DNA of 64,000 bases from Candidatus Bathyarchaeia archaeon (GCA_035656295.1 DASRSU010000008.1:8110-72109), one strand, 5' to 3'. Shown: positions 3,041-52,010, numbered from the stretch's first letter. Program-made: numbers and translations. The notes: a model not told the origin generated them from the sequence alone.

Positions 3041-3325
3041 TCACGCCAGTTCGGCGTCAGCCCGGTGTTCTTCTTCTTTCCAGTCCTTCAGCCTGCCACG
3101 AATCCTCTTCTGAAACCTTTCGAGCCTGAGGTCGGTGCTCAGTGAGAAGATTGGGTCGTTGGGATCTGCTTTCTCCGAGAGGAGGAGTAGTCGTGTGGCT
3201 ACTCTTAGTGCTTCTTTGAGGCTCAGCCCATGTTTCTCGGCGTAGCTCACTAACAGATTGTAGTCGGCCTTAGTAAGTTCCGTCTGGACAACTCTCACGG
3301 TATACGTTCCATGATCATGGACCAT
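3041..3325 (-). CDS. small hypothetical protein (possible ribbon-helix-helix-like)
   Basis: 94-aa ORF with a charged helical composition; no recognised family. Confidence 0.3.
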   Translation of the reverse strand: MVHDHGTYTVRVVQTELTKADYNLLVSYAEKHGLSLKEALRVATRLLLLSEKADPNDPIFSLSTDLRLERFQKRIRGRLKDWKEEEHRADAELA

Positions 3326-4110
3326 TTAAGAAATCGACTGGCCCCGATCAAAGAAGTGGACACGCTATCCTACCTCAAGCGAATTCGCTACGGAGGATCC
3401 GTTCAGCCCCGAATCGACGTTCTACGTAGGCTACACCGTCAACATTTGCTCACTGTACCCTTCGAGAATCTCGACATCCGCATGGGCCGACCAATCATCC
3501 TCGACCAACCCTTGTTCTTCCAGAACATTGTAACGAATTGTCGTGGCGGCTATTGCTACGAATTGAACGGATGCTTTGAGTGGCTGTTGAAGAGTCTTGG
3601 TTTTCAGGTGTCAATGCTCTCCGCGAGCGTGGCAACAAAGAACGACAGTTTCAGCCCAGACTTTGACCATATGCTACTGCTGGTCCATCTCAAGGAGCAT
3701 TGGCTGGCTGACGTCGGGTTCGGCGACCTGTTCACAGAACCAAAACAACTCAACAATTCCAACCCACAAGGGATAATGGGCGGCTGTACAAGATCAAGAA
3801 CGAAAATCGTAGAAGAGTCCTGTCCCGCTGGAACGAAGACACAAGTCAGTGGGAACCTCAGTACCGATTCAGCTTACAATCACGAAAGCTGACAGACTTC
3901 GCTACCAGGAATCGGTATCAGCAGACCTCGCCTATGTCTCATTTTACCCGAGGACGGTTGATAAGCAAACTTACACGTACAGGCAGGGTCACTCTCACTG
4001 ACAAGAGACTCATCGTGACAACTGGCAAGAAGCGCATCGAACGCTCTATTAAGAGCAGAAGAGAGTTCGATCAGCTATTGGCAAAACATTTCCAACTGAA
4101 AGTTGCGTGA
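3311..4110 (+). pseudogene. arylamine N-acetyltransferase (NAT family), disrupted by a -1 frameshift near 3770
   Basis: The N-terminal part (3311..~3780) carries the NAT motifs LTVPFENLDI and RGGYCYELNG (catalytic Cys). The C-terminal part continues in the -1 frame (DNGRLYKIKNE...LTDKRLIVTTGKKRIERSIKSRREFDQLLAKHFQLKVA, stop at 4108-4110) with no start of its own. Confidence 0.85.
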
Positions 4111-4133
4111 GAAACCACTGGTATGCTTAATTG

Positions 4134-4556
4134 TCACGACTCGAGTACGACATTCAATCTTCTAAGAGTCATTTTGTGTCTAAGAATAATGTCTCGCCCA
4201 AGGATGCTGTTGACGTTTTCGAGAAACGCTTTCCTTTCCGCTGGATCATTGCCTTGGAATAACAGAGCTCTCATTGGTTCAAAATCGTAATTCTTTCCAA
4301 CGAGGTTTAGTCTAACATGCTCCGGATACACGTACTGTTTGAGGACGTTTCCTGCTGTGAAGATTACTTCGTCGGTTTCCTGTAGCTTGTCTCTCTGGAT
4401 TCCCAGTTTCAAGAAATCTCCTTCTGAAACCTGAGTAAAAGTTGCACCAGTGTCTATTAGAAACCAGACTACTTCCGTGACATTTGCTGGAAAAATGGTC
4501 ACTCTTACTTGAATGCGGGGGCCCTTCGCAAGATCAACGACCCCGCTCTGTCGCAA
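4134..4556 (-). CDS. retropepsin-like (clan AA) aspartic protease
   Basis: 140 aa with the D-T/S-G-A active-site motif in hydrophobic context (FLIDTGATFTQV) and a length typical of single-domain retropepsin-like proteases. Confidence 0.7.
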   Translation of the reverse strand: MRQSGVVDLAKGPRIQVRVTIFPANVTEVVWFLIDTGATFTQVSEGDFLKLGIQRDKLQETDEVIFTAGNVLKQYVYPEHVRLNLVGKNYDFEPMRALLFQGNDPAERKAFLENVNSILGRDIILRHKMTLRRLNVVLES

Positions 4557-4563
4557 TCGTCCT

Positions 4564-4848
4564 TCAGATTATCATGTTGCGCGGTTTTGCGCCTATGAAT
4601 TCTGTCGCGAATCCGATTGTGCTTCCGTGTTTGTCTTTGAGTCTCTGGAGTAATGGCTCTAGGTCAGAGTCTGAGTCGACAATTTTCTTGTCTTTTACCG
4701 CTATCCATTTGTCTGGATACTCGCCGCGGAGCTTGTTGTAGTTCCTGACTATCCAGTCCATATCCTGGTTCGGAGCAGCAACCTTAGAGCCTTTAGTTAC
4801 TCTCATTTCTACCTGGAGGCCCATTTTGCTAGATTCCTCCCTTTGCAT
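4564..4848 (-). CDS. small hypothetical protein, co-directional and 7 nt upstream of the retropepsin-like protease
   Basis: 94-aa ORF (YPDKWIAVKDKKIV...), tightly packed with 4134..4556, suggesting a two-gene unit. Confidence 0.45.
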   Translation of the reverse strand: MQREESSKMGLQVEMRVTKGSKVAAPNQDMDWIVRNYNKLRGEYPDKWIAVKDKKIVDSDSDLEPLLQRLKDKHGSTIGFATEFIGAKPRNMII

Positions 4849-5781: not shown

Positions 5782-6732
5782 ATGATCAATCCCTCTGCTG
5801 GATCCGACAAGATTGTCCAAGTAGAGAATCTCTCAAAGAAGTACGGAAATATTACAGCGGTCAACGGGATCTCATTCAACCTCACCAAAGGCGAAATCTT
5901 CGCTTTCCTAGGTCCTAACGGAGCCGGGAAAACCACCACCGTGGAAATCCTAGAAACTCTCCGAAACCCGACTGGCGGTCGAGCACATGTCCTCGGTTAC
6001 GACGTTAGCAAACGCACAGACCAAGCCGAAATCCGGAAACGCATTGGTGTCCTCCCACAGGATTTCAATGCAATCGACCGGCTAACAGTCCGAGAGAATA
6101 TCAATTATTTCGGAGCCATGTTCAAACACCAACTGGACGCGGACCAACTCATCGAACAGGTCGATCTAAAGGATAAACGAGACGAACAGTTCAAGAGTCT
6201 CTCTGGCGGGTTGAAACAACGAGTCGGCCTAGCAGTAGCCCTTGTAAACGATCCCACCCTCGTCTTCCTTGATGAGCCCACAACAGGCCTCGACCCACGC
6301 GCACGTCGGGATGTATGGGGCGTTATCGAACGGTTGAAGAAACAGGGAAAGACAGTCTTTCTAACAACTCACTACATGGACGAGGCCGAGTATCTGGCAG
6401 ACATCGTCTCGATCATTAACAATGGCCAAATCATTGCGTTGGGAACACCTGACCAGTTGATAGACTCCTACGGCGGTAAGAAGACGCTAATCATCCGCGA
6501 CGCAGGCCCACAGGGTCTCAAACAGCTACCACCGAACATTTCGAAAGCGGATCTACGCAACGCTGGTGACATCGCAATACCCCTCAACAATGGAGAACTC
6601 ACCAACATACTCCTCGAAATAGGGAAAACCCCGCTTCACGATAAGGAGATCGAGGTCAGACGTCCCACGCTGGACGATGTCTTTCTCAACCTTACCGGGC
6701 GTAGAGTGTCCGAGGAGGGAAACGGTGCATGA
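5782..6732 (+). CDS. ABC transporter ATP-binding protein
   Basis: Walker A GPNGAGKTT, ABC signature LSGGLKQRV, Walker B LVFLDEPTTGLD, H-loop TTHYM. Confidence 0.92.
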   Translation: MINPSAGSDKIVQVENLSKKYGNITAVNGISFNLTKGEIFAFLGPNGAGKTTTVEILETLRNPTGGRAHVLGYDVSKRTDQAEIRKRIGVLPQDFNAIDRLTVRENINYFGAMFKHQLDADQLIEQVDLKDKRDEQFKSLSGGLKQRVGLAVALVNDPTLVFLDEPTTGLDPRARRDVWGVIERLKKQGKTVFLTTHYMDEAEYLADIVSIINNGQIIALGTPDQLIDSYGGKKTLIIRDAGPQGLKQLPPNISKADLRNAGDIAIPLNNGELTNILLEIGKTPLHDKEIEVRRPTLDDVFLNLTGRRVSEEGNGA

Positions 6733-7844
6733 CCCGGGTCACAACCATCATAATTGGCCACTTCAAAGGCTGGTATCGCAGCAGAAGCAACATCTTCTGG
6801 ACAATCGCCTTCCCGCTTCTGCTCATAGTCCTGTTCGGCGCAATCTTCGGAAGCGGCAGCACAAAGTTCGACCTATACCTCCAGAACCAAGACCTCAACG
6901 GGAACGTTCCCACCACGTACTCACAAGGCTATGTACAGGTCCTCAACCATACTGGAGCCTTTAACCTCCGAATGATACCTGCAGAAAACACGAACCCGCT
7001 CGGCTATGTGAAAGATGACGCACAAGTCCACAACAGAGGCCAACGATTACTAGTAATACCCCTTGGCTTCCAGACGGAACTCAATACGAAACACAATGCA
7101 AGCATTCAGCTGTACATGGACAATAGTGATCAAGCTTCTGCAAGCCTCGCTGGCATAGTCACAGCAGCCACAACCTCGTACGCATCCCAATTCGCCACCA
7201 ACCCGGCCAGCCTGACAGTGAGCCAGGTGCCAATTGTTACCAGAAACGTCCGGTACATTGATTTCTTCATACCCGGAGTCATCGGCATGACACTGCTCAC
7301 CACAGGCGTCTTCGGCGCCGTAAACACGAACGGCAGATACAGGGAACTGAAGATCATCAAGAAACTGGCCACTACCCCCTTGAGCAAGATCGAATGGATC
7401 CTGGGAATGGTAGGCTACCAGATGATTCTCGCCACGATCTCGCTCGCGGTCATACTCGTATTTGGCTGGGCCATCTTCGGCGTAAACGCCACCATCACCA
7501 TCTACACCGCGGGACTCGTATTCGCCGCCGCATTACTATTCCCAGGTATAGGAATGGTCCTAGCCAACTTCGTCAGAGAAGCCGAATCAGCCGATGCAGC
7601 CGCCAATGCGATAACATTCCCGATGATGTTTCTCGCGGGCACGTTCTGGCCCCGCGAGACCCTACCTGATATTCTGAAGGTCCTCGCCAACTTCATGCCA
7701 TTGACCTACATCAACGATGGATTACGGGATGCAATGATCTATCTCGCACCAGCCCAGGCATTCAACAACATGATCATAGCACTCGGCCTCGCAGCATTCT
7801 TCATCGTCCTTGGCAGTTTGCTCATGAACTGGAAAGAAGAATAG
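6729..7844 (+). CDS. ABC-2 family transporter permease
   Basis: ATGA start/stop overlap with the ATPase gene; multi-TM 371-aa protein with ABC-2 permease topology (N-terminal TM, large loop, five C-terminal TMs). Confidence 0.8.
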   Translation: MTRVTTIIIGHFKGWYRSRSNIFWTIAFPLLLIVLFGAIFGSGSTKFDLYLQNQDLNGNVPTTYSQGYVQVLNHTGAFNLRMIPAENTNPLGYVKDDAQVHNRGQRLLVIPLGFQTELNTKHNASIQLYMDNSDQASASLAGIVTAATTSYASQFATNPASLTVSQVPIVTRNVRYIDFFIPGVIGMTLLTTGVFGAVNTNGRYRELKIIKKLATTPLSKIEWILGMVGYQMILATISLAVILVFGWAIFGVNATITIYTAGLVFAAALLFPGIGMVLANFVREAESADAAANAITFPMMFLAGTFWPRETLPDILKVLANFMPLTYINDGLRDAMIYLAPAQAFNNMIIALGLAAFFIVLGSLLMNWKEE

Positions 7845-7848
7845 CGAG

Positions 7849-8267
7849 ATGAGCATCCAGGCAATCGCAAACGAGCCCCGAAAACTCACGGTAGTTGTTG
7901 CCGCGAACCTTGCTGTACTTGGCGTGCACGCTACGGCCCACTCGATACTTGGCGTAGTCTTATCAGATTTTCAGTCACTCTTCGTGTTATTGGCAATGAT
8001 TATTGGGCCTATCGTTGCGGTCCCACTCCTGTTTACTCATCTTCGCGTGGGACTGTGGCTGTTGCTACTCTCAATGCTACATCCTTCGTCTTCGGCTTCG
8101 TCTACCATCTCATACTCCCTGGCGTAGACAACATCTTCACTCTCCCAGCGGGTGATTGGAAAATCGTCTTTCAATTCACGACTGTGCTCCTAGGAGTTTT
8201 GGAGGCAGCAGGAGCTCTGCTTCCTGCGTTGGGACTGTTGAAATTCAGGACAGTGAAAATTTCCTAG
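7849..8267 (+). CDS. small hydrophobic membrane protein, possibly split by a frameshift (ORFs 7849..8127 and 8055..8267)
   Basis: Two overlapping hydrophobic ORFs in adjacent frames; the second has no independent upstream context. Confidence 0.3.
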
Positions 8268-8561
8268 TCTCGGCTCCGACGATTACGTCTTGCGATCCTA
8301 CGAGCCTTCCGCTTGGCCTGTTTCTTTCTAACAACTAGAATTAGAGATAGGACCGCTGCAAGTCCTGTGATGATAATTACAGTGTTACTCAAAATTGTAT
8401 TCGCCCCAATCTTCGAACCGACGACCACATTGCCAGGCTACTAGAACAGTCTGTTACCGGAGCTCTACTGCTCGTTGAGTGTGAACTACGCTGCCACAAG
8501 CCGTCGATAGATTTAACCACACATCCCAAAATCCAAGACTATAGGACCAAGTGAAGACCAC

Positions 8562-10666: not shown

Positions 10667-10675
10667 CTGTTAGAG

Positions 10676-13167
10676 CTAGCTTGTCTGTCTCTTGTGGGTC
10701 ACCTTCAATGAGATTCGCTTGACAAAGACAATTCCTTTTCCAGTGACGATTTCAAATTCTGCTGGGACAGGCGATGTCTTTCGGCCCGCAAGTCTCTTCA
10801 CACTGATCAGCCTCGCAGTCGATCCTCCCTTCTGAACTGCGTTTAGTTCTATTACTCCGTCCACTAGGTTGTCGACGTTCGATCTTACTTCTTCAGGGAT
10901 CGAACCTCTCGATCCGGCGAGTACCAAGATCCCGTTATTGTTCTTGACCTTGGCGCTGAGGGCTCTGAGAAAGTTGATGGTCGTCTGGGGTTGGACTCCA
11001 TTGAAGATCGGTGCGATAGAGTCCATGACGATCATGATAGGTCCCCCCTTCGCGTTTTCGATCATGCTGGTTACTTGGATCCCGGTCTCCGTGAAGTCAA
11101 CCGGGTCCCTTACCTGTGGATTCTCCACCCCTGCAAGAGCAGAATAACAGTCTAGAATCCTGAAGGTTCCATTCTTCAGATACTCATCCACATCCCACCC
11201 GAACGACTTCATGATCCGTTGAATCTCCGCAGGAAAGGCATCATACGTGATGAGCCCTGCATGCTTTCTGTTGAGAGTTGTCGGTACATCAATTCGAGGC
11301 TAAGCGTTGTAGTTCCAGAGCCGGTGTCACCAAGAATCAATAACGTGGTAGAGGGCGAAAACTCTCCGCCTGTAAGTTTGAAGAGTTCGTCGAACGACCC
11401 CTGTCCCGTGTTGAACCTTCTGACTAGCAGTAGACCTGCCCCTCCCGATCCAGCTATTAGAGCTGCTACGAAAAACCAGAACGTAAGAGACTGTGGAATC
11501 GCCGCTGCGGGCGATGTATTGACAATGACTGACTGCGTCTGCTGACCCGCATTGCCATAAGCATCCATGACTTTGACTGTGGTCACCCACAGTCCAGAAG
11601 GATCCGCTGACCGGACAACGTAGCTTCCCGCCCATCTCGACTGACCCTGAACGTACGAGAGCGACAATGGGGTTCCAGTCGGACTTCCATTAGAGGAAAA
11701 TGTTACAGTCACTGTCCCATTGGTGAAAATCGTACCGTTGGGGTTTGTGATGGTTGCATAGACGGGTATCACTTGCCCGGTCGTATATGTCTGGTTGGGA
11801 ATTGTGAGAATTATGTTGAAAGTTGCGAGTTGTACATTGAAGCCCCGGACAACACTCGTCAACGGGCCCCCGTTCCCGTAGCCGTCGTCGAAACTGTTCG
11901 GCTCAATTGTGGCTACCCATGCTCCCGTTGGAGCATTGATCGGTGTCTTGGACACCGCTTGGTATAGACCCGTACTAGAATTGTAGTTTGCGGTTATGAT
12001 GAACGATGTTGTTCCGTCTGGTGCAGTGATTCGGATGCTGGTCGACCCGGCCTGGACGGGTAGACCATTCAGGTAGAATACGCTGAAAGAATAGTATTGA
12101 GACTGTGTCCGTTGAATTACACCTTGTGCGACCGTGATCTGTGCGATCGTCACGTTCGTCGGATACACTGTAAACTGACGCACAATACCAACTACGGGAC
12201 CAGTGTTTCCATAGCTATCATTGAACATGCCCGGGTCGATGGCCGCCAACCAGTTGCCTTTCTGGCTACTAGCAGGTATCATGTATGTGGCTCGATATGC
12301 TGCGTAGGTCGAGTTGTAGACTGCAGTGGCAAAGACAGAGGTTACACCATCAGATTCCGTTAGCCTAATCTTCGCCGATCCCGTCTGCACAACTGGTCCA
12401 GTAGAGTAACTAACGGTGAAGGATACCGACTGTGTCTGAGTTCTCTGAATAGTTACCTGGCCGAGCAGCAGTGGCGAGATTGTGACATTGGCGGGATTCA
12501 TAGTGAACGCCTGCCTGTCAGGAACAATCTTGCTAGTCTGGCTTCCTGTAAGGGAGACCGTCCAGCCACCAATTGGTGCGTTTACGGGTATCTGCCATGA
12601 TGTTGATAATTGGCCGGTGGAGTCAGCGGTGATCGTGGTAGGATAGCCATTTGCGGAGGTTGAGCCCTGGAAAATATTGATCGTCGTCATTTCCAGGTTA
12701 CGGTAACCTGTGGCCTTGATGGAGACGGTGTTAGTCCGCTGGTAAGTCAGCCTGTCAGTTAGTCCAACTTGGAATTGTCCACTGGCTACGTTTGGGACAC
12801 TGGTTGGCAGGGTCTCGTTGATTATGACATTGTAGTTTCCTATGAGGACGATGCTCGTTGCAAAATCTCTCGGATATTGAAGACTGATAAGGAATGAGGC
12901 AGCTGTAGCAACAGTCTGGTTCGAATGATTCCTCACCACCCCCGACGGGTCCGTTACCCCCCATGTGAACTGGTAAGCGGTCCCGATAGTTGCGCGAGAA
13001 ACATTCATGACCAATACGTCTGCTGCCGTCCCAGTCTCCTGCTGTCTCGCGGGTACCGGCGTGAACGTGAAGACTTCTCCGGCCGCATGAACGTGAGGGA
13101 TAGCTGGGGTAAGGAGTACGAGAAAAGATAGGACCGGAATTCCAATACGGAATAGTTTGGAAATCAA
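10676..13167 (-). pseudogene. surface receptor-like protein with a cytoplasmic KaiC/RecA-like domain, split across two frames near 11213-11300
   Basis: From the N-terminus: signal peptide (LVLLTPAIPHVHAAG), ~520 aa with tandem ~110-aa repeats and many N-x-S/T sequons, one TM helix (FWFFVAALIAGSGGAGLLLV), then a KaiC-like start GSFDELFKLTGGEFSPSTTLLILGDTGSGTTTLSLEL with a degenerate P-loop (Lys->Thr). This frame then stops (11209). The domain continues in the other frame without its own upstream start (GLITYDAFPAEIQRIMKSFGWDVDEY...IMIVMDSIAP...VLAGSR...). Confidence 0.65.
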
Positions 13168-23043: not shown

Positions 23044-23907
23044 TTATGGTTTCGCTTGAACTGCGCTTCTCTTCAGGACGCTCCAAAGAGTAGCCAGGTT
23101 ATGCTCCCAAGCATCTTTGCCGCCCGTTTCGATGCTTACAACGATCTTCAGAAATTCTTCTACTTCAAGCGGGACAACCCTGTAGTCATTGTCCCTGCCC
23201 ACCGTGACGAGGATCGTCTGTGTTTTTGCCTCAATCTTTGGGGCTATGAAAACGCCTGATACAGATTTGTCTCGATAAGTCTTCCTGGCATCTTCAATAT
23301 GATCAGGAACAGACGCAGCCTCCTGATTCCATTGTGCTCTTCCTCTTAGAAGGGTAGTCTCCACAACATACACGTTGTTGCCCTGAAAAGCCATTATGTC
23401 GGGCAGTTTCTTTCCAGTCTGTTCCGAAATCTTTTGGGCAGGAGTTGGAAGACCCCACTCTCCGGTCTTGCCGTTCCAAACAACATCATCAAACACGGTT
23501 CCTTTGAATACACGTAAGACCCGAAAGACTAATTCTTCCAGCCTTCCTCCAGCAACCCACCGTAGAGTTTTGGGGTCACTTTTCTCGGTCCCATTTTTCC
23601 ATTCCAACCTAGTCTGAAGGTCTGAATCTGCTTTCTTGGTCACAAGTTCCCGAATCCAGAGTGACAATAATTCGACTGTATCTACCTGGGCGGGCAGGCC
23701 CTCTTCTAGGGATATGGAGAACGTTCTATGCTTCGAGTCAGGTCTTATCATCGCTTTGGATATGGCCTGCCCGTCAGCTGGGCGGATTACTTCAATCTCG
23801 TATTCGCTATTCTCATACAGGCTGAAAATGGCGGAACCATCCTCGTTAGCAAATTGAACCGATTCAGGCTGTTGACCGGACTTCTTTGACTTTGACGACA
23901 AATCCAC
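23044..23907 (-). CDS. restriction endonuclease, C-terminal part (putative catalytic domain), GTG-initiated ORF continuing 23864..24751 in another frame
   Basis: 287 aa. The ORF opens right after an in-frame TAA (~23933). The combined length with the upstream ORF (~580 aa) matches AlwI-family enzymes, so a single gene split by a frameshift is likely. Confidence 0.4.
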   Translation of the reverse strand: MDLSSKSKKSGQQPESVQFANEDGSAIFSLYENSEYEIEVIRPADGQAISKAMIRPDSKHRTFSISLEEGLPAQVDTVELLSLWIRELVTKKADSDLQTRLEWKNGTEKSDPKTLRWVAGGRLEELVFRVLRVFKGTVFDDVVWNGKTGEWGLPTPAQKISEQTGKKLPDIMAFQGNNVYVVETTLLRGRAQWNQEAASVPDHIEDARKTYRDKSVSGVFIAPKIEAKTQTILVTVGRDNDYRVVPLEVEEFLKIVVSIETGGKDAWEHNLATLWSVLKRSAVQAKP

Positions 23908-24751
23908 TGGCTGTGCCCGAGGCGGGCTGGAGTTTTATTTCTACCTTCTGAGGTGGGTGATCACGTGATGTATCTCCGAAATATTCGAACCACTCTTCTT
24001 CATCTCTCCAATCGGTTTTGACATCAATCCGCTCGGAAAGGAGTGACTTTACCTCAGGTTCTTTGCCCGGTGTGATGCTAAGCTGTTGCGTCTTTGGGTC
24101 GAACGTGCATAACCCAGTGGCGAGAATGTAGGGTCTAAGATGTTCTTCGTACTCGTGAATACGAGTATATAGCAGGCCGGTAGACTGTTCCTCTTGGTTT
24201 CTGGCGTCCAGCTTGCGGAAGTCCAATATTGCGTTCCTAACCGTGTCCAGTTCACTCTGTTCCGCTGACATGGTTCGCCAAACGAACAGCGCGGATTCTC
24301 TTTCATGAAGTGACCCAAGCTCGGTCAGAAAATAGAGAATAGTTCTGAAAGGAAATAGCTTGATAGATCGGGTGTAAGGAGCCACGTGGCCCTGTGCCTC
24401 ATATGGATTAGGGTATTGCCACTTCAGGAGCTGAAGCCGTAAGACCTCTTCGACTTTTCCATTGACGAAGAGAGCACCCGCAGGCGTAATAGTAAGAAGT
24501 TCTTCTCGCACCCATGCGAGTCCAAAGTACTCAAATGTTGCGAGTATCGCTCTGGAGGAGCGCTCATCAGAGATTTTGGACACAACGAGTTTCTTCTTCT
24601 GAAGGAGTGTCTTGTAGTAGATTTGCTTCGGCCTCCAAGGCTTACCAGCAAAATCTCTCCCTGCGAGAATACTCAGGGCCAGTCGGGTTTTTTCAACATT
24701 AGTCCACCGCTTGTTCGCGTGCCAGTGCGGATAGTCAGGTCTCTTGGGCAC
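23864..24751 (-). CDS. restriction endonuclease, N-terminal part (AlwI/N.BstNBI-family-like)
   Basis: Immediately downstream of and co-directional with the methyltransferase. N-terminal region (...WRPKQIYYKTLL...SRAILATFEYFGLAWVREELLTITPAGALFVNG) resembles the N-terminal region of AlwI-family type IIS enzymes (similarity recalled from memory, not run). It overlaps the next ORF by 44 nt in another frame. Confidence 0.4.
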   Translation of the reverse strand: MPKRPDYPHWHANKRWTNVEKTRLALSILAGRDFAGKPWRPKQIYYKTLLQKKKLVVSKISDERSSRAILATFEYFGLAWVREELLTITPAGALFVNGKVEEVLRLQLLKWQYPNPYEAQGHVAPYTRSIKLFPFRTILYFLTELGSLHERESALFVWRTMSAEQSELDTVRNAILDFRKLDARNQEEQSTGLLYTRIHEYEEHLRPYILATGLCTFDPKTQQLSITPGKEPEVKSLLSERIDVKTDWRDEEEWFEYFGDTSRDHPPQKVEIKLQPASGTASGFVVKVKEVRSTA

Positions 24752-36411: not shown

Positions 36412-37011
36412 CTAACCTACGGCAGCTGGTAGAGACTGGAATCTCGCAAGTAGTCGAGTGACGCGCTCGTCAAGCTTTGTCTTCATGAAGCCCTGGTCTT
36501 CCTGAATATTCAATTGTGAACCCCAGAAGGTGAGAACGTCCCGGGCCGTTATTGTCGCGGAGAGATCTCTGATCGCGTCTGGAACGCTTGCATAGCCCCA
36601 GGTGTATGTTACGCGGTAGCGGAGGGTATCGTCAAGGCGTAGCTTGTGCCACTGGATCTTGCCCTCAGGATAATAGACGTAATAGGTCTGGTTACTAGGA
36701 AATTGAGTTGGGTATCCTTCGACGCCGGCAATCCATGTCTGGGTCCCGGGATCCCAGTATTCGACGGTTGTAACTGAGAGCAGTGGACTATTGCGGAGAA
36801 TTATCTTGCCAGCGCGTGGGCCCGTACCGATCGCGTCATATCGTTCCTGGACGTTGTTCTGGTACCAGTTGTGACCCGTGGCCTTGTCAACATACGAGTC
36901 TGCCCGGGCAATAAGATCCGTAACCTGCGTCGACGTCGGAACTGTCGAACTAGTGAAAGTCAGGTTGAGAATATTGCTGACGTCAGCTGGAGCACTGTAT
37001 GGCAGCTTTTT
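36412..37011 (-). CDS. gp6-like head-tail connector (adaptor) protein; open frame without a canonical start codon
   Basis: Not in the ORF track. Hand translation of the minus strand gives a ~195-codon open frame (...PTSTQVTDLIARADSYVDKATGHNWYQNNVQERYDAIGTGPRAGKIILRNSPLLSVTTVEYWDPGTQ...YYPEGKIQWH...). This fits the gp6/gp15-like connector pattern. There is no ATG/GTG/TTG in the first ~170 codons. Confidence 0.45.
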   Translation of the reverse strand, partial: KKLPYSAPADVSNILNLTFTSSTVPTSTQVTDLIARADSYVDKATGHNWYQNNVQERYDAIGTGPRAGKIILRNSPLLSVTTVEYWDPGTQTWIAGVEGYPTQFPSNQTYYVYYPEGKIQWHKLRLDDTLRYRVTYTWGYASVPDAIRDLSATITARDVLTFWGSQLNIQEDQGFMKTKLDERVTRLLARFQSLPAAVG

Positions 37012-37216
37012 TCACCATTAATTGGTAGACGAGGTCGGGCAGCATCCTATCTCGAGTAGCCGGGTCGTATCTCCAGAGGGCATTTCCAATGGCGAGTACG
37101 CGTAAGCATTCACCGCAGACGAATCGGTTGTGGTGGATGGCGCCACCGGCACCTCTTTGATTCTTGGAAGCACGGCAGAAGGTGCATCCTGTATCAATTA
37201 TTTCCGGGATCATCAT
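36983..37216 (-). CDS. small zinc-ribbon protein
   Basis: CTFC...CGEC; 77 aa. Its last 10 codons overlap the connector frame. Confidence 0.35.
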   Translation of the reverse strand: MMIPEIIDTGCTFCRASKNQRGAGGAIHHNRFVCGECLRVLAIGNALWRYDPATRDRMLPDLVYQLMVKKAAIQCSS

Positions 37217-44116: not shown

Positions 44117-45915
44117 TTCCTCTTCCTCTCAACAACGTATTCCCGGCCGGTAGGAGTACGGATCTTCAACGTCTCCGCTGCGGGATCTTTGGGTTGATCG
44201 TTCAGTGGTTTCGGGACTGCCTGGGGCTGGAACATCGTTCCCTGACCAGCCTCCTCCGGGATCTGCAATCTCTCGCGCACGTATTCCTGGCTGACTATTC
44301 CTCGAGTATAGAGATCTGCTAACGGTGCCTCGTTGGCCCGCCAGTCTTCAGGCGTGATTTCTTTGAAGTTGAAAGTAATGTCTTCCTTGTCGGTCGGCGA
44401 GTCTTTCGCTGCCGGGACGTTGGCTGCTTGTGGTTTTGCTACTTTCTTGGGGGTTGAGATTGTACGTCTACCTCTGGTCCATCGCCAAGCTGTCTACCAG
44501 GACGCAGGTTAAGCAGAATTCTCGGAATCACGTAGTCCATGTGGAGCTGCTCTAGCTTCTCCTGGTTCTCTCGAGTCTCGTCTTCCATCAGTTCGAAGTT
44601 GAGGCTTCCCCACTTGATCTCCTGACCTCCGCCCAGAGTTGCAACTGTGAGAGGGATGCCCATTCCCAGAAGGACACGTTCCTTGTACGCCTGGAGATAG
44701 TTGGCCACACTGTCGCTGGTTCCGCCGGCTTTGTAGAGCTCTTCGCCTTTGACGAGAAAGTTGACCCAGACGTCCTCGCCCTGCTGACGATTTTCGATCG
44801 TAGTCTTCTGGCGCAGAATGTCATCGGTTGCAGGAATACTAGAGACCTGTTGGTGGGTCTCGTCAAAGTACGTGCCTCCAAAGTTCCACACAATCGTCTT
44901 GTCGCCTCTCTTGCCAACGATCGTGGGCAAGTACTGCAGCATTACGAGGTAGCCTTTCAGCGCGAACAATGTTTCGCGGAAAGTACTGTAGCCGTAGATG
45001 CCGCCCGTTATCTTGTTGAACTGGAGACACAGCATCTGATCCGGGTGAAAATCAATCTCCGTCTCGCTACCGATTACTGCAGTCGGTGCAAGAGGCCCGG
45101 ACCATCTCCGCTGAATATACTTGTCCACAAGAACTGTTGCGCGGTCCTTGTCCCACTGCTGTGGCTGGATCTGGATACGGAACGTTCGTGGATCCGTGTT
45201 CTTGAGACCATAGAACTTGGTTGCAGGAGTGAAGCTTACGAGTGGTCGCGGCGCGTAGGTGATGTTACTGCCCTGGTATCCGACTCCTTGGGCAACGTCA
45301 GCAGCGTTTGAAAGACTCCAGGTTGCCGTGCTGTCGTCTACGGACTCAATGTACGCATTGCCCCAGATCAGCGCGTTCTTCGTCGCTTCGAATAGTGAGT
45401 GCTTGATCTTGAGCCGCTTGTACTCTTTGAGAATCTTGTCGGTCAGCTGGTCGCTGCCACTGTTGATCTCAAAACCCGGTTTCCAAACTTGACGAGTTTT
45501 GAGCTTTACCGCGTATGCAACTTCGGGAACGAACAGATATGCGTCGAGGCTAGAGGAGCTTTCTTAGAGCTCTTACTCCCAATACCAACCCCAGTCGTTT
45601 AGCCCTGCTTGGTTTAGCAGACTGGCCAACCGAAGGTTGGTGCATACTGTCCGAGAACGGGCGTCGTGGCTGCAAGGGCGCGATCGTCTTCTCGAATCTT
45701 GGTCCTAACATGCTCAGCGAGTTTCTGACTCGCGACCTGCGGAGAATATTCCCAGCTGTCCCCAAAGCCAATGTCGCTGTTGCGAACATAGCCCTGCTGG
45801 ATGAAACGTATTGGAACCTTCTCAATTATTCTGTTGAAGTCGGGCAGAACGGATGTTGAGAAGACTGGGGTGGGGAGGGTGTTTCGCCCTGGTGTCCGTT
45901 TTTTAAGACCGAATC
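44117..45915 (-). pseudogene. portal protein, reading frame broken at least three times
   Basis: Hand translation gives portal-like segments in different frames, from N- to C-terminus. First, frame q (~45915 to TAA ~45613), ...DFNRIIEKVPIRFIQQGYVRNSDIGFGDSWEY...PVLGQYAPTFGWPVC*. Second, frame c (opens ~45562, ESSSLDAYLFVPEVAYAVKLKTRQVWKPGFEINSGSDQLTDKILKEYKRLKIKHSLFEATKNALIWGNAYIESVDD...ATKFYGLKNTDPRT), switching at ~45176-45186. Third, the listed 229-aa ORF 44439..45128 (...RIQIQPQQWDKDRATVLVDKYIQRRW...GGGQEIKWGSLNFELMEDETRENQEKLEQL...). Fourth, the C-terminal frame 44117..~44490 (...ITPEDWRANEAPLADLYTRGIVSQEYVRERLQIPEE...). None of the upstream segments has a canonical start. Confidence 0.55.
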
Positions 45916-45930
45916 TTTCTAGGAACCTCT

Positions 45931-46394
45931 TTGGTAGATGTAACAGTGCTCACCTCCGACGTGATCGTGAAGTCTTGGTCTGAACCCGAGAAATCCTGGC
46001 TCGCCTGTGCTATCGACAGCGAAGGATCTATCAATTTCCGTCCTGACAAGAGGCACAAGGAAACAATGAGTTTCTCCGTTTGGTTCTGCAATACCAATCG
46101 GCCATTCGCGCACACGTTCGCCAAACTGACTGGAGGGACGCTCTTTTCGCGCGGCCACCGCGCGGTTTCGGCAAGAAGATGCAATTCGAGGTCTATGTGA
46201 CCTCCAAGGCGCGGGTTGGGAAGCTGCTAGAAGCAGTGCTTCCGTATCTGATTGTAAAACAACAACGCGCTCGCGAACTGCTAGCCTGGATCCGTCAGCA
46301 TCCAGAGACTAGAGCCGACAGAATCGTCAGGTTGAACCGGACGCTTCCTCGAAACGAGGCCGGTTCAAACATGCCTCTAGCATCGTCCTACTGA
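45931..46394 (+). pseudogene. LAGLIDADG-family homing endonuclease (single-motif type), frameshifted near 46105-46135
   Basis: KSWLACAIDSEGSINFRPDKRHKETMSFSVWFCNTNRPFAHTFAKLTGG (LAGLIDADG-like motif WLACAIDSEGS). The C-terminal half continues in the +1 frame (FGKKMQFEVYVTSKARVGKLLEAVLPYLIVKQQRARELLAWIRQHP). The break lies at a cttttcgcgcggccaccgcgcgg run. Sits on the opposite strand between the portal and TerL genes. Confidence 0.6.
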
Positions 46395-47864
46395 ACATAC
46401 GTGCCGTCTGCTTTCTTGTGACCGCAGATACAGTCAGTGTTGGGTGGATTCCAGCGTCCACACCAAGTGCACAACACCTTGCCGTGCTTTGTGTTGTCAT
46501 TGTCCCAGGGCTTCTTGGGCCCATTGTCGAATTCGCCCGGTCGCTTGCTCAGATATACTGTGTAATCGATGGGCTTGTTCTCAGGCCTTGAAGCGTACAC
46601 TGCCAAGGCGAACGCCCACAGCTGATCGTCATGTGTCCCGGCGGGGTGAGAGAACTGCATCTGCCCGGTCTTGGTGAGTTCGTACCTTTCCAAATTTAGC
46701 TGGTTGATCAAGTCCTGATCATAGAACACCGCAGCTTTTCCTTCTTGCATCTGTTTCTTGAGATACACCATGATCTGCTGTTTCTGGGGCAGGGAGAGCA
46801 TAACGCCCTCCGAATTTTTCAATCCGGCTTTCGCGGCTTCCTCCACGAAAACTTCGCCAACTCCAGTTTGATCAATGAGGATGCGGACGACTCGGTCATG
46901 TTTCTGATTCGCAAGAGACAGCCAGCCGAGGACCGTCCCATATTCAGTGCCGAGTTTGAACTGTTTCACCTTAACTAGAAGTGCCTGCCCAGCAATCTTC
47001 CGGACTACTGCGATCACCGAATGATTACGCTTCTGGCCAAGGTCTACGCCAATGTAGAACTCGCCATGTTTAGCGTCCTCAGTCGCTGCTGGTGTAGAAG
47101 TCGTCGGGTATAGGCTCCAGATCTTGTCTTATCGATTTGGTGATGAGACTCATTGGGAGCCAGGCGTCTTCGTCTTCGGCGAACTCTGCTTCCATCTCTC
47201 TTTGCCAACGCCACGGATCAACCGACTCAATCTGTTTGCGCAGTTTCTCCAGAATCTCCTCTTTGAGGGGACCGTTGGGTTCGAGGGCTTCACGCCAGGA
47301 AATGTGATGTCGTGAGACATCTCCGTAAGTATCGTTGTCGGTACACATCCGATAGAAGACGCTGTCGCGGCTTCCAGGTGTCGAGGTGGCGAGAAACTTA
47401 CCGTTAGTGGTGGCCAGCGTAAAGACGACTGCGTCGAGTAGATCTGCGTCGTCCCGTACGAAACCGTATTCGTCGATGAATACGAGATTGACTCCGGGCT
47501 CGCCACGTATCGTCTCGGGATTGTTGGGGAAGGCCTGGACGCGGCTGCCGTTGTGGAATTCGATTTTTGTTTGGAGCGGTTTCGGGGCCACATATTTGGG
47601 TAGACGCCTCAGGAAACTAGAAATTTTTCGAATGATGATCTTGCTTTGCCGAAGTGAGGGTGAGACGACTAGGACATTGAATTCACGGTTGCGTAGGCAC
47701 TGAAAGAGTATCAACGCTGCGATGATGTGGCTTTTGCCGCTTTGTCGACACCAGCGAATGACAATGAACTGTGACTTGTCATTGAGAACTTTGTTTTGGT
47801 ATTTTGTGGGTTTGAATGACAATAGTTTCTCGCAAAATTCTACTGCCTCCTCCGGGACATTCAA
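46388..47864 (-). pseudogene. terL: terminase large subunit, ATPase and nuclease domains in different frames (break ~47054-47100)
   Basis: ORF 47079..47864 has Walker A VIRWCRQSGKSHII, Walker B LVFIDEYGFV and an ...AEFAEDEDAWLPMSL end. ORF 46388..47017 is the RNase-H-like nuclease (IDQTGVGEVFVEE, HDDQLWAFALAVYA). The nuclease frame extends upstream with no start (STPAATEDAKHGEFYIGVDLGQKRNHSVIAVV) and overlaps the ATPase ORF end (PDDFYTSSD*). Confidence 0.85.
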
Positions 47865-48814: not shown

Positions 48815-50085
48815 TTCTTTGGCTATGCTTAATGTCTACACCTCCAATCGGGTTTTGGTCGCGCGACGGCCAATAGGTCGCGGTCGTAGCCAGGTGAACT
48901 GATTACCTCGCCAACATCAACATCTAGGAGGACACTCTCAACGAGTGAGACAATCTCGCCGAGTTGCCGGTCCCTGAATGTGTTTTGCCGGACCTGGCGA
49001 ACCTCTTGGTCTAGAATTTGTTGTATGCGAGTTTGTCCTCTGATTGTTGGTCCCTCCCCGGTTATTCCGGGCGAGGAGAATCGCTGGCATCACGCCCGAT
49101 TCGGCGTCTACAGCGTTTGTCCGTCGCGGTTTTTCCGCAGACCACTATATGTCGACGGAAATATATTAGGAGAGGCCGCGCAAAAAACCACCGTCCGGGA
49201 TTATCTGGGATTTAATCGAGCCTCTGAGATTCATTCCTTGAACTGTTTCAGATATCCTAACTCGCTTAATCGTTCTCTTACCAATCTTCGTATCAAGAAA
49301 CTTAGCTGATGTTCTCCAATTGCTTCGGAGTACGACCGCAAGGCGTTCCATACATCTGTAGGCATTCTCAGGTGAACCTCAGCCCTCAGTCGGTTTTCTG
49401 GATTGTAAAGCGGGGGTCTTCCTCGCCGCCTAGCTGAGGAAATATCCGATTATCTGCACCGACTTATCTATGGTAACCCTTCGGAAAACATTTTCTCGAC
49501 AACGAAGACCAAGAAGACTAGAACAGATGCCGGGAATATTACTGTCTGCGGCTGAAAAACATCACGCAATTCTCTTCAAAATGAGGATCTTCAGCCGACT
49601 TGAACGCGTCTACGTCAATTCGCGCAAGGCTCTATCAGTATACCACTATTTTTCCTTGTGATTCTCAACTCTATTCCAATCAATGGTTCCGCCATTTCTC
49701 TCGGCAGGTAAACAAAGTAGGATTTGTAGACGTACTCTCCTTTTTTTCTTGTCATGTAGATTTTCCTGTAAGTCTTTACCTGGATCTTAGGCAAGGTGCG
49801 TTCCTCAACGAGACTTCATTGCTGAATACGGAGCTGGCCGACCATTAAGCGAAAGATAGGTGCAAAAGTGACCTCTTGCCAGCGTGGGAAAGGTAAGTTT
49901 TACCTGTCAAACTGTACCCAAATGAACCTGATCCACCACTCGAACGGGTTGATTTCAGCCTTAATCATGTGATCCCAGCTGACTTTAGGCGAGTCATGCA
50001 AGGGGTAGGGGGTGGGGGTCAACCAAAATCATGAGCGAGCCTTGGTAAGGTTAAGGTAGCCCAGACCTTCTGGTCAGGGTTCTTC

Positions 50086-50814
50086 ATGACAGGCATCCCC
50101 AAACCGACCGTCGAACGACTACTCCAGGAAAACCTGGAACATGACTGCAGTAAAGCCCGAGGAGCATGTGTTAGAATCGTTGCCGTTGCTGAGCTTCCGA
50201 CCATTTATGGACATTTCCAGGCGGTAGCGTTCGAGAACAACGTGGACAAGAAAGAGCATGCGGCCCTTGTCAAGGGAGACGTTTTCGACAGAGATGACAT
50301 CCCGGTCAGAATGCATTCCGAATGCCTCACAGGCGACGTCTTCGGCTCCCTGCGCTGCGACTGCCGCGAACAGTTGCAACACTCCCTGAAAGCAATCAAC
50401 GAAATGGAGCATGGCATTATCCTCTACTTGAGACAGGAGGGGCGGGGAATCGGCTTCGTAAACAAGATACGAGCATATCAGCTACAAGACCATGGCAAGG
50501 ATACGTACGAGGCGAACATTGCACTAGGCTTCCGGCCGGACGAGCGGGACTACGATCTAGCCGCACACATGATCGGGTCGTTACATGTCAAGTCGGTCAA
50601 GCTGATGACGAACAATCCTCAGAAGATCAAGGATTTACAATTACACGGTGTCAAGATAACAGGTCGAATCCCCCTTATTATTCCGTCAAACAGGTACAAC
50701 GCGTTCTACCTAGAAACGAAACGCGTCAAAGGAGGACACTTGTTACAGCCGGGTCAATTGCATGACATGTTTCTGGAGCAGGGCGAGCTACCGCCAGACC
50801 AAGATCCAAAATAG
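50086..50814 (+). CDS. ribA: GTP cyclohydrolase II (riboflavin biosynthesis)
   Basis: RMHSECLTGDVFGSLRCDCREQL zinc/substrate motif; ILYLRQEGRGIG. Confidence 0.85.
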   Translation: MTGIPKPTVERLLQENLEHDCSKARGACVRIVAVAELPTIYGHFQAVAFENNVDKKEHAALVKGDVFDRDDIPVRMHSECLTGDVFGSLRCDCREQLQHSLKAINEMEHGIILYLRQEGRGIGFVNKIRAYQLQDHGKDTYEANIALGFRPDERDYDLAAHMIGSLHVKSVKLMTNNPQKIKDLQLHGVKITGRIPLIIPSNRYNAFYLETKRVKGGHLLQPGQLHDMFLEQGELPPDQDPK

Positions 50815-50828
50815 GAATGCTACAATAG

Positions 50829-51497
50829 TCAGTCTAGAACCTCGTAAGACAATACGATATCAGCTCCGTACGATCTAGCTTTTGTAAACCGTAATTTGAC
50901 TGCATCCTCCACTCGCTCGACACCCTCTCCTTCAACCAATGTGACGGCCTCCTCTCCACCAATTATCAACGGACTCACAGCAATACTCACTTCATCCACG
51001 AAACCCTGGGTCAACATATTCCAGTTCAACGTCCCGCCACCTTCCAGGAGTATTTTCCGAATCCCGAGCCGCATGACACTTTTCATCAACATAGGAAGAG
51101 AAACGAGTTTGCCTCTTCCACAAACCAAGACCATAACACCCATCTTCTTGAGTCGACGAATATTCCCTGCAGGTGCCTTGCTCGTTACTGCAATGATTGT
51201 AGGTATTTTCCTGGCCGTCTTGACAACGTAGGCGCCTGCTGGTGTCCTAGCGAGGCCGTCGACGACGATCCGTGTCGGGTTTCGTCCTCGGTAGTATTTG
51301 GTCGTAAGTTTTGGATCGTCTGCTAGTATCGTGCCAAGCCCGACCATTATTCCGTCCACGCTACTTCGTAACCTGTGGACACGCTTGAGATCTTGTTGAG
51401 ATGAGAGTCTTGATTCCCTCCTCTTGGTGGCTATTTTGCCATCAAGGCTCATAGCTGAATTCAAAATTACGTGGGGACGCGAGCCATTCATAGTCAT
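50829..51497 (-). CDS. 2,5-diamino-6-ribosylamino-4(3H)-pyrimidinone 5'-phosphate reductase (RibD C-terminal-domain-type reductase)
   Basis: VILNSAMSLDGKIATKRRESRLSS...RLRSSVDGIMVGLGTILADDPKLT matches the RibD_C / dihydrofolate-reductase-like reductase pattern. Confidence 0.8.
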   Translation of the reverse strand: MTMNGSRPHVILNSAMSLDGKIATKRRESRLSSQQDLKRVHRLRSSVDGIMVGLGTILADDPKLTTKYYRGRNPTRIVVDGLARTPAGAYVVKTARKIPTIIAVTSKAPAGNIRRLKKMGVMVLVCGRGKLVSLPMLMKSVMRLGIRKILLEGGGTLNWNMLTQGFVDEVSIAVSPLIIGGEEAVTLVEGEGVERVEDAVKLRFTKARSYGADIVLSYEVLD

Positions 51498-51517
51498 CCA
51501 GTTGAGACTGTGGTGTA

Positions 51518-52010
51518 TTACCTTGTCAACTCCATTAGAATCTCTTCAATCTCAGCGCCGCGCGCCATAGCGAAGCCCTTTCCCAGGTCGACAATTCTGA
51601 AACCATTCTTTTCCAAAACCCTGATGCTTGCCGTATTGTTTTTGGCCGCACCAGCATAGATGGGACGGGTCTTCAACTCTTGCAGAAATAACGATAAGGC
51701 TTGGTCGCGACCCCCTTGCCCCAGTATTTCTTTTCCAATCCAGTAGGTAACCTCTGGCCTCCCTTCTTCGCACGTATTTGGCGACGCTACTGGCAATACG
51801 TCCATTGTAAAGAACAGACTTGACCACAACATCCTCCTCATTCCTCATTTTTGTCCAGTGTTTGTCGAAAGCCTCTCGCTCGCTCGGGTCTATCCCAATG
51901 AACGCGGCCATGTAATTTGCTTTCGGATCCAGTTGATACTCGTAGAACGCAGGTAGGTCGCTGTCGGGGACAGCTCTCAAAAGGATCCTGCTCACTACCA
52001 CCACTCTCAT
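51518..52010 (-). pseudogene. GNAT-family N-acetyltransferase, frameshifted near 51760-51775
   Basis: N-terminal part in the frame of ORF 51552..52010 (...AFIGIDPSER...VVVKSVLYNGRIASSVAKYV, then nonsense). C-terminal GNAT motifs in the frame of ORF 51518..51841 (RPEVTYWIGKEILGQGGRDQALSLFLQEL...NNTASIRVLEKNGFRIVDLGKGFA) after a nonsense N-terminus. Confidence 0.75.

Follow-up and report, generated by a model that had tools for sequence, protein, structure and literature searches.

Why are so many genes interrupted in one stretch of archaeal DNA, and are these interruptions errors, lesions or features of another kind? The window analyzed here, 64,000 nucleotides long, belongs to a contig of 1.05 Mb from a soil Candidatus Bathyarchaeia MAG and includes a provirus. 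The original prediction named nine interrupted genes, all of which we found to be broken at or near the positions given, and it offered two explanations, indel errors or true pseudogenes in a decaying prophage. This choice was only partly borne out. Pseudogenes account well for the host genes, the restriction endonuclease (REase) and the LAGLIDADG HEG, but not for TerL and the portal, which display conserved two-ORF splits, intron-like insertions and purifying selection. We conclude that the interruptions are probably real features of the DNA, belonging to three classes, i.e. slippage indels (class A), conserved gene splits (class B) and mini-introns in the portal gene (class C).

One-base indels in host and cargo genes

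Class A would consist of one-base slippage indels that inactivate the following genes.

3311..4107, + strand: arylamine N-acetyltransferase (NAT); frame break, one base missing at GGG 3770-3772
7849..8264, + strand: member of a family of small, 139-aa membrane proteins; frame broken around 8078-8085
10676..13167, - strand: MG2-domain/transmembrane/KaiC-like ATPase; -1 frame break at the A-run 11265-11267
23044..24751, - strand: AlwI/N.BspD6I-type REase; +1 frame break somewhere in 23867-23934
45931..46394, + strand: LAGLIDADG HEG, between TerL and portal; one frame break, at TTTT 46144-46147
51518..52010, - strand: GNAT acetyltransferase; three one-base indels (+1 at about 51770, +1 at about 51730, -1 at about 51700)

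A profile or a homologue ran across every one of these breaks, and full-length homologues in a single frame exist. The two NAT pieces (3311-3889 and 3712-4107) matched positions 2-128 and 119-235 (of 240) of Pfam Acetyltransf_2. The two REase ORFs matched positions 13-186 and 347-441 (of 441) of RE_AlwI, and mapped to residues 12-189 and 418-553 of N.BspD6I. The comparison with relatives that had been proposed for these loci showed that NAT and the KaiC-like protein are read through the junction in one frame elsewhere: residues 8-263 of NAT lie in a single frame in Bathyarchaeota relatives (64% identity), and 90-95% of the repaired KaiC-like sequence is covered within one protein in the homologues P0208-P0213. 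In the window, the 178-aa KaiC-like ORF covers only positions 67-228 of the KaiC profile, while the Walker-A segment GDTGSGTT is found at the C-terminal end of a 652-aa ORF, in a different frame. A reading of this break as two overlapping genes was rejected.

Correction of single bases, also suggested with the original prediction, gave products that match homologues across the junctions for the membrane protein, the HEG and the KaiC-like protein. The repaired membrane protein was 79% identical to P0238 over residues 1-139 of 139 and matched 486 proteins at E<=0.001, hundreds of which span the junction; matches of the annotated 92-aa ORF are confined to residues 1-79. With GNAT, the Pfam Acetyltransf_3 score rose from 33.5 bits (C-terminal piece alone) to 51.6 (one indel repaired) and 72.2 (three repaired). 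The repaired HEG spanned its junction in matches to I-MsoI/I-CvuI residues 10-123 (E 0.001-0.03) and to phrog_5046 (E 7e-13), and had no match in Pfam. It contains a single LAGLIDADG motif, which reads LACAIDSEGS, and belongs to the I-CreI/I-MsoI homodimeric family; the relative L032 has just 124 nt at its place. Taken together, NAT, the membrane protein, the KaiC-like protein, GNAT, the REase and the HEG are predicted pseudogenes.

These breaks could also be sequencing or assembly indel errors in genes that are truly intact. Several lie in short homopolymer runs, as originally noted, and this was true where the position could be fixed exactly (GGG, AAA, TTTT and AAAAAA). Furthermore, some 43 kb contain five broken host or cargo genes (about one per 8-9 kb), a high density which counts against the three-class explanation and in favor of errors, and a search for a second assembly of NAT, GNAT, the HEG and the head-tail adaptor found none. 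Against this, two contigs of SRR12347814 from a second assembler, Logan, were 100% identical to positions 7701-18698 and 20285-30110 of the window (about 20.8 kb), including three breaks: contig L001 has the same DNA at the membrane-protein and KaiC-like breaks, and contig L031 the same two REase ORFs (100% identical). The exact proteins of both TerL ORFs and of the portal fragments are also on record from Logan (that of the TerL ATPase ORF from NCBI as well), and independent assemblies from ENA, JGI and NCBI again show TerL and the portal interrupted, at 46-84% identity. In addition, the three GNAT indels fall within 80 nt and two of them compensate each other, and the portal is interrupted by 23- and 24-nt insertions rather than by one-base errors. 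Errors are therefore a scarcely credible explanation.

Split reading frames of TerL and the portal

Class B would correspond to old, conserved splits, which leave TerL with separate ATPase and nuclease ORFs and the portal with separate core and crown ORFs.

47079..47864, - strand: TerL ATPase-domain ORF; ends at TGA 47081-47079, matches Terminase_6N
46388..47104, - strand: TerL nuclease-domain ORF; +1 frame, ACG 47104-47102 where P0191 has its start Met
44439..45549, - strand: portal exon 3 (core); ends with GDGPEVDVQSQPPRK and then a stop codon
44113..44460, - strand: portal crown ORF; -1 frame, ATC 44460-44458 where the relatives L117 and L118 have ATG

The +1 change of frame in TerL lies within 47079-47128. 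The ATPase ORF is 84% identical to P0033, which stops at the same domain boundary, and 24 of 81 related loci shift frame at this boundary, in one direction or the other (+1 or -1). The junction sequence is ATGA, GTGA or TTGA at one fixed site; other junctions are ATGAGTAG, TAGGATG or TAGATTG. In relatives, the nuclease ORF opens with a start codon of its own, ahead of the catalytic Asp (in P0191, which is at least 90% identical, a Met 12 codons before GEFYIGVDLG); the window has ACG there, and its first canonical start, GTG 47019-47017, is downstream of the catalytic GVDLG motif. As for the portal, about 15 protein clusters of homologues end after GDGPE, and the crown ORFs begin with MSIDP in L117 and MSISP in L118. 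TerL and the portal are split alike in dozens of metagenomic relatives, and the TerL break and the C-terminal portal break are, by this comparison, conserved two-ORF architectures. Because downstream starts overlap or adjoin upstream stops in relatives, the data suggest that the downstream ORF (TerL nuclease or portal crown) is translationally coupled in these relatives. The dN/dS ratio, computed for the TerL and portal pieces (the host genes being without close orthologue DNA), amounted to 0.10-0.24 for each piece, with dS values of 0.85 to >2; it was 0.10-0.14 for the TerL nuclease ORF and 0.12 for the crown against L068.

The alternative that the ribosome decodes the breaks, with programmed +1 frameshifting where the TerL frame stops and bypassing of the 23-29-nt gaps in the portal (as in T4 gene 60 and the yeast mitochondrial byps), gains some weight from the fact that the four TerL genes in the subclade of the window all shift +1, the upstream frame ending with TGA in three of them. 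Yet no conserved shift-prone sequence was found at a fixed position when a programmed site of the prfB/antizyme type was sought at TerL. The four stop contexts (GAC TGA G, CGG TGA G, GCC TGA C and ACC TAA A) share no such sequence and their positions differ by up to 18 nt. Moreover, other subclades shift -1 with overlapping start codons, and the nuclease ORF of a close relative starts with Met.

Another possibility is that all interruptions of the provirus are lesions of a dead prophage inherited vertically, the hairpins in the portal gene being small mobile palindromes that are removed at no stage. Near-cognate codons occupy three expected starts (CTG in the portal, ACG in the TerL nuclease ORF and ATC in the crown), the HEG is broken too, and the adaptor has no start.

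36415..37018, - strand: head-tail adaptor (gp6-like); no canonical start codon

The adaptor frame is open for 199 codons (36415-37011), and its first ATG, GTG or TTG is codon 166; an ATG at 37018-37016, on the other side of the run A6 37012-37007, is out of frame by one. The adaptor is 66% identical to a 209-aa protein of L113 and matches phrog_442 (head-tail adaptor). Owing to the near-cognate codons and the startless adaptor, the provirus of the window may be recently defective, so that the defective prophage originally proposed is still plausible, but on evidence other than the frame breaks. Likewise, since the TerL nuclease and crown ORFs are without canonical starts, the class B splits may be non-functional in this copy. 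A dead prophage is nevertheless difficult to reconcile with dN/dS values of 0.1-0.24 in every TerL and portal piece at saturated dS, when a value near 1 is expected of pseudogenes, or with the start/stop overlaps at the TerL junction, which are conserved across subclades.

Short insertions in the portal gene

The portal gene has three interruptions, the crown split and, upstream of the core, two insertions, for which we use the term mini-intron (a slash marks the putative cut).

45622..45946, - strand: portal exon 1; opens with CTG 45946-45944
45599..45621, - strand: candidate mini-intron 1 (23 nt); H GGCC, bulge AG/T, hairpin CTGCT-AAACCA-AGCAG, H' GGCT, bulge AA/A
45574..45598, - strand: portal exon 2 (25 nt); encodes DDWGWYWE
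45550..45573, - strand: candidate mini-intron 2 (24 nt); H GGAG, bulge TA/A, hairpin GAGCT-CTAAGAA-AGCTC, H' CTCT, bulge AG/C

A perfect Shine-Dalgarno sequence, GGAGGTGA, is present at 45957-45950, six bases before the CTG of exon 1, and the amino acids of this exon are conserved with respect to L068 and L032 while synonymous change is saturated. Alignment to the intact gene of L113 delimited clean insertions: the two of the window measure 23 and 24 nt, and the four of L068 measure 22, 24, 26 and 23 nt. Six further mini-introns were present in the relatives L068, L114 and L115, with compensatory changes in their stems; L114 and L115 (46-48% identity) have a 29-nt example two codons away, and the homologue of mini-intron 2 in L068 has a different stem (GACAGT/ACTGTC).

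Removal of mini-intron 1 restores W-P-D-D-W-G. Mini-intron 2 contains two in-frame stop codons, and its removal joins TA/C, the invariant Tyr codon of WEYLDAY; with both insertions removed, the invariant GWPDDWGWYWEYLDAY motif is back. In-silico removal yielded open ORFs of 487 codons in the window (70% identical to residues 75-509 of P0121) and 499 codons in L068, with invariant residues restored, including those whose codons are split by an insertion.

Each insertion showed a strict splice geometry exactly at the boundaries that restore the frame, which shuffled inserts reached in 5e-5 to 1.3e-3 of trials per insertion (5e-5 for mini-intron 1). The central helix, formed by exon positions -6 to -3 with intron positions -6 to -3, comprised four Watson-Crick or G-U pairs in seven of the eight insertions and three in the other, and the helix partner in the intron changes along with the exon sequence, even when the site shifts. 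On the 5' side, each of the eight insertions has a single base before a closed 4-6-bp stem, in keeping with a 3-nt bulge that would be cut after its second base. Pairing was found in 98% of the structure cells, versus 46% in shuffles, and 8/8 pairs varied on both sides, though the alignment was built on the proposed structure, which makes this count partly circular. Minimum free energy folds contained the helix, the 3-nt bulge and the hairpin for intron 1 of the window and introns 2-4 of L068; the expected fold appeared in the centroid only for intron 1 of L068, and the inner hairpin only for intron 2 of the window. Fold z-scores were weak at single sites.

The geometry agrees with the published motif definition (PMC4090602). 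An outer exon-exon helix, with the second 3-nt bulge of the canonical hBHBh' form, was looked for by inspection and in the outer-helix count of a motif scan, and no pairing was found upstream of H with exon 2 from +2; the relaxed HBh' form of the archaeal bulge-helix-bulge is thus the only one that the predicted structures fit. Without the outer helix, 3' cleavage would require an endonuclease of relaxed specificity. The HBh' motif is unspecific by itself (218 strict hits in the window versus about 158 in shuffled sequence), and it was not found at the TerL, REase, HEG, membrane-protein or adaptor breaks.

In the mechanism that we propose for class C, the last exon bases would pair with the 3' part of the intron in a 4-bp helix, and the element would further comprise a 3-nt bulge containing the 5' splice site, an inner hairpin and a 3-nt segment containing the 3' splice site. 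The host tRNA-splicing endonuclease would cut the portal mRNA at both sites, and an RNA ligase would join the exons into one frame of 487 codons. No endA gene was found in the window. We infer the splicing itself from observed properties, i.e. the positions and geometry of the insertions, the restored frame and residues, the compensatory stems and the purifying selection.

Bypassing would account for the stop codons just past the putative take-off site and for the hairpin formed by the gaps. Yet matching take-off and landing codons were looked for in the insertions and none was found, and in seven of eight insertions the junction is inside a codon, where joining restores a conserved residue, which bypassing cannot do. 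With the TerL findings above, this makes ribosomal decoding very unlikely. The four insertions in one gene of L068 could be taken as a sign of a dead prophage, but removal of the insertions alone opens the 487 and 499 codons, the stems differ among relatives and yet stay paired, the 4-bp exon-intron helix tracks the exon when the site shifts, and the splice geometry is rarely reached by shuffling. Overall, we regard a dead prophage as an unlikely cause. Our preference, which is a modest one, goes to the view that tailed viruses of soil Bathyarchaeia carry mobile BHB/HBh' mini-introns of 22-29 nt in an essential structural gene and rely on the tRNA-splicing endonuclease and ligase of their host.

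Comparison with known systems

In some phages, the large terminase is encoded by separate ATPase and nuclease genes. The TerL described here similarly has the two domains on adjacent ORFs, but the split occurs within a Mu gp28-like terminase clade from viruses of soil Bathyarchaeia, where stop and start codons overlap at the junctions, and these viruses have a split portal too. Translational bypassing occurs in T4 gene 60 and in the byp elements of Magnusiomyces mitochondria; it resembles the portal insertions in that essential genes are interrupted by short non-coding stretches containing a hairpin and stop codons, but it keeps codons whole and needs a matching codon pair, whereas the portal insertions split codons and have no such pair. 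Group I introns, inteins and free-standing homing endonucleases occur in phage packaging genes. They likewise cluster at TerL and portal, and the LAGLIDADG HEG of the window lies exactly between both genes; at 22-29 nt, however, the mini-introns are far too small for a ribozyme or an encoded protein.

A likeness is also found with the non-canonical (hBH/HBh') tRNA introns of Thermoproteota, which are also tens of nucleotides long, with a relaxed motif, several per gene and varied positions. These introns depend on broad-specificity endonucleases of the (alpha-beta)2 or epsilon2 type (PMC4090602; PMC5829648). The difference is that the portal substrate would be an mRNA, so that splicing must keep the reading frame. 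The BHB intron of cbf5 in Crenarchaeota (Aeropyrum, Sulfolobus) is likewise a short intron in a protein-coding gene, presumably removed by the tRNA-splicing endonuclease; it has been misannotated as a frameshift, and cbf5 was described as the one archaeal gene whose pre-mRNA splicing is confirmed (PMC2738675). Compared with cbf5, the present case concerns a virus portal gene with up to four candidate introns per gene, which vary in presence and exact position among relatives and lack the outer helix. Mini-introns of the tRNA type in a virus gene have not been reported before. If confirmed, they would represent the first archaeal-type mRNA splicing in a virus and would extend protein-coding BHB splicing well beyond cbf5.

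Short insertions in the provirus portal gene

All nine gene disruptions of the original prediction (NAT, a membrane protein, a KaiC-like gene, REase, adaptor, portal, HEG, TerL, and GNAT) were found in the sequence when each gene was compared with profiles, homologues, and reading frames. Reading them as indel errors or pseudogenes was correct in part for the host genes but mistaken for the portal and TerL. The latter two lie in a tailed provirus spanning at least 26.3-49.9 kb of the window, which is syntenic with contig L113 (GCA_030157145.1), where portal and TerL are both intact.

Features of the provirus (window positions)
26298-28508: tail protein
32243-33121: tube protein
33126-33965: DNA methyltransferase
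36415-37011: adaptor
39379-41580 (-): 733-aa ORF, homologue of a 740-aa L113 protein, without Pfam or PHROG match
44.1-47.9 kb: portal, HEG, and TerL

The genes of the window carry locus tags VFE98_027xx to 030xx. Scans for tRNA genes and Rfam families found none in the window, and a viral contig collection scanned with TerL gave no match. Low-complexity sequence rich in Pro, Thr, Gly, and Ser makes up the long middle of the 733-aa ORF, which also contains an acidic stretch. Downstream of it is a 324-aa ORF sharing 81% identity with its equivalent in L113. A 503-aa ORF (34699-36210, minus strand), also lacking a Pfam or PHROG match, is replaced by about 270 nt in L113. Conversely, two L113 genes upstream of the adaptor (13251-14473; 278 and 129 aa) are absent from the window, and this boundary in gene content coincides with the missing 5' end of the adaptor.

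The three portal pieces of the window correspond to a single protein in relatives, such as P0121 (601 aa), which covers 99% of the pieces at 63% identity, and the similar homologues P0122-P0124 and P0131. Comparison with L068 and L032, two contigs of relatives, indicated purifying selection on every piece. A three-way DNA alignment including the intact L113 gene was used to define the insertions. The window portal contained clean insertions of 23 and 24 nt within the invariant FGWPDDWGWYWEYLDAY, while L068 had insertions of 22 and 24 nt at the two corresponding positions and two more, of 26 and 23 nt, in a later stretch that is uninterrupted in the window. All of them share one layout: H (four exon bases), then two exon bases and one intron base flanking the first junction, a closed hairpin, H' (four intron bases that pair with H), and two intron bases preceding exon 2. 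This architecture matches the geometry of the archaeal bulge-helix-bulge (BHB), in which a 4-bp helix separates two 3-nt bulges holding the splice sites (PMC4090602). Because the outer exon-exon helix is absent, the motif is of the relaxed HBh' form. The boundaries set by this geometry were exactly those that restored the frame and the invariant residues, split codons included.

Predicted portal mini-introns (slash, predicted exon junction)
Window intron 1, 45599-45621 (-): CCA G/AC GAC, restores P-D-D
Window intron 2, 45550-45573 (-): GAG TA/C CTC, restores E-Y-L
L068 intron 3: GCA C/TC AAG, restores A-L-K
L068 intron 4: ACC AT/A GCG, restores T-I-A

Without the insertions, the window has an uninterrupted 487-codon ORF, 70% identical to P0121, and L068 one of 499 codons, which then has an ATG start. 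The IMG/VR contigs L114 and L115 (46-48% identity) carry a 29-nt insertion of the same geometry two codons away; H' is AAGT versus GAGC in L114/L115, and each pairs with GCTT. When the inserts were shuffled with the exons fixed, the geometry arose in 5e-5 to 1.3e-3 of trials. Over eight sites, 98% of the structure cells were paired versus 46% in shuffles, a comparison that is partly circular as the alignment was made from the proposed structure; both partners vary in each of the eight pairs. Strict motif matches over the window (218, versus about 158 in shuffled sequence) made the scan uninformative by itself. Because the motif alone is not rare, the weight lies in its coincidence with boundaries that were set independently by homology. 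The predicted portal mini-introns stand out among the results and are well supported by this comparative evidence.

Just 5' of its mini-intron, L114 has another frame change (6190-6215) at an ATATAT repeat (…GEI/WPDDWG…), for which no explanatory intron-like structure was found.

Division of TerL and probable division of the portal core and crown

TerL is divided into an ATPase ORF (TerL-N) and a nuclease ORF (TerL-C). The repaired protein has many single-frame, full-length homologues (45-55% identity). The ENA contig L032 (78% nucleotide identity) showed the same +1 frame change at the same place in a gapless alignment, and a change of frame at the ATPase-nuclease boundary, of the +1 or the -1 type, was present in 24 of 81 related loci. 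In one subclade the stop and start overlap at a fixed site (ATGA, GTGA, or TTGA), and in others the junctions read ATGAGTAG, TAGGATG, or TAGATTG. The two halves had dN/dS values of 0.10-0.14 (dS 0.85-2.4), and P0191, which is at least 90% identical to the window TerL-C, starts M-TSTPAANDDVKHGEFYIGVDLG. The recurrent boundary break, the stop/start overlaps, the dN/dS values, and the P0191 start argue that TerL is an old two-ORF gene. The window has ACG (47104-47102) at the position of the P0191 Met codon, and its first canonical start lies downstream of the catalytic GVDLG; the nuclease ORF of the window has lost its canonical start codon.

At the TerL stop, a +1 frameshift and a 7-nt hop (GAC..GAC) were both rejected on the comparison of four relatives and on the -1 subclades with start codons. 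BHB scans of the TerL, REase, HEG, membrane protein, and adaptor junctions gave no compact frame-restoring candidate. In L084-L099, contigs of a -1 split-TerL subclade, a 7-bp hairpin (GGTATCG…CGATACC; e.g., L084 3680-3730) surrounds the overlapping (A/G/T)TGA and could act in translational coupling or mark a further processing site.

The break between portal core and crown looks like a second two-ORF split, unlike the two N-terminal portal breaks. About 15 portal homologue clusters end right after GDGPE, with tails such as …LNVN. In the contigs L117 and L118, a downstream ORF overlapping or following the upstream stop begins at a conserved MSI(D/S)P…, where the window has ATC (44460-44458) in place of ATG. 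This break may instead be a long intron, and a weak 95-nt candidate (44372-44466) was found at the junction; the BHB scan there gave no compact frame-restoring candidate and only weak long ones.

Frame breaks in host genes, REase, HEG, and adaptor

The two NAT pieces matched Pfam positions 2-128 and 119-235 of 240. The gene is one base short at GGG (3770-3772) and forms a single continuous frame in relatives, the closest being from soil Bathyarchaeota MAGs (64% identity). The repaired membrane protein (139 aa) was 79% identical end to end to a 139-aa homologue, and its junction was also spanned by hundreds of homologues of about 140 aa, while the annotated 92-aa ORF matched residues 1-79 only. 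GNAT contained three indels in 80 nt, of which the second and third offset one another around KYWGKGVATK; their successive repair raised the Pfam score from 33 to 52 and 72 bits. The two REase ORFs corresponded to the N- and C-terminal parts of RE_AlwI and N.BspD6I.

The KaiC-like ORF (178 aa) begins at KaiC profile position 67, and the missing Walker-A part (…LILGDTGSGTTTLSLELMYRQL…) forms the end of a 652-aa ORF in a different frame. Relatives with 50-57% identity are continuous, some also including the MG2 domain. The Pfam coordinates, together with the Walker-A segment lying upstream, excluded a reading as two genes with an ATGA overlap. Other relatives (P0221, P0223, P0224, and P0228) share 59-67% identity and have a length of about 180 aa; their ORFs start at the internal Met with which the 178-aa ORF of the window begins, or 13 residues before it, while P0231 and P0208 are continuous. 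Judged from these sequences, other lineages may share the break point.

Within the provirus, the LAGLIDADG HEG (45931-46394, plus strand) is on the strand opposite to TerL and the portal and exactly fills the interval from the stop of TerL (46388) to the Shine-Dalgarno sequence of the portal (45957-45950). It has a single break at a T4 run, and the repaired protein aligned with I-MsoI and I-CvuI through the junction. Its insertion is recent, since only 124 nt separate TerL from the portal in L032. The adaptor has a 199-codon open frame, 66% identical to the L113 protein, in which the first possible ATG, GTG, or TTG is codon 166; one ATG lies out of frame across an A6 run.

Two Logan contigs (run SRR12347814), from an independent assembly, showed 100% identity to window positions 7701-18698 and 20285-30110 and had the same split ORFs of the KaiC-like gene and REase. 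The exact 261-aa TerL-N, 209-aa TerL-C, and 229-aa portal fragment were also recorded from Logan; exact-protein look-ups, extended to the RibA and RibD regions, found no second assembly for NAT, GNAT, HEG, and adaptor. As Logan was possibly built from the MAG's own reads, this agreement excludes assembler artefacts and not systematic read errors. The triple indel of GNAT is hard to explain as error. Stop-codon reassignment was ruled out because it cannot join pieces that differ in frame, as most of them do.

One-base indels affected four host genes and REase in about 43 kb (window 1-26000 and 50000-64000), about 10% of the genes. Pseudogenes are not usually so dense in a free-living archaeon, and the frameshifts in host genes suggest that this soil archaeon carries an unusually large number of them.

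State of the provirus and predicted splicing

The first codon of the portal is CTG, which follows a perfect GGAGGTGA at a distance of six bases (45944-45957, minus strand). Near-cognate codons thus stand at three expected starts on this strand (portal CTG, TerL-C ACG, crown ORF ATC). Together with the startless adaptor and the broken HEG, they are consistent with recent inactivation of the provirus; non-canonical initiation, with the provirus using such codons, would also fit.

Standard pipelines label such portal and terminase genes as fragments or pseudogenes. In the MAG annotation, the pieces are a 261-aa 'terminase family protein' and hypothetical proteins of 209 and 229 aa. This labelling may bias estimates of completeness and calls of 'defective provirus' for archaeal viruses. 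The papers on Bathyarchaeia viruses and proviruses consulted here do not mention introns, frameshifts, or split genes, and literature searches for BHB introns in archaeal viruses gave no result. Splicing of the mini-introns would raise questions on intron mobility, the timing of late-gene expression, and escape from DNA-targeting defence, and it would mean that viruses depend on archaeal mRNA splicing for structural genes. In the literature searched, the sole confirmed case of archaeal pre-mRNA splicing is cbf5, which was likewise confused with frameshifting (PMC2738675); if the mini-introns are spliced, archaeal mRNA splicing reaches past this one gene.
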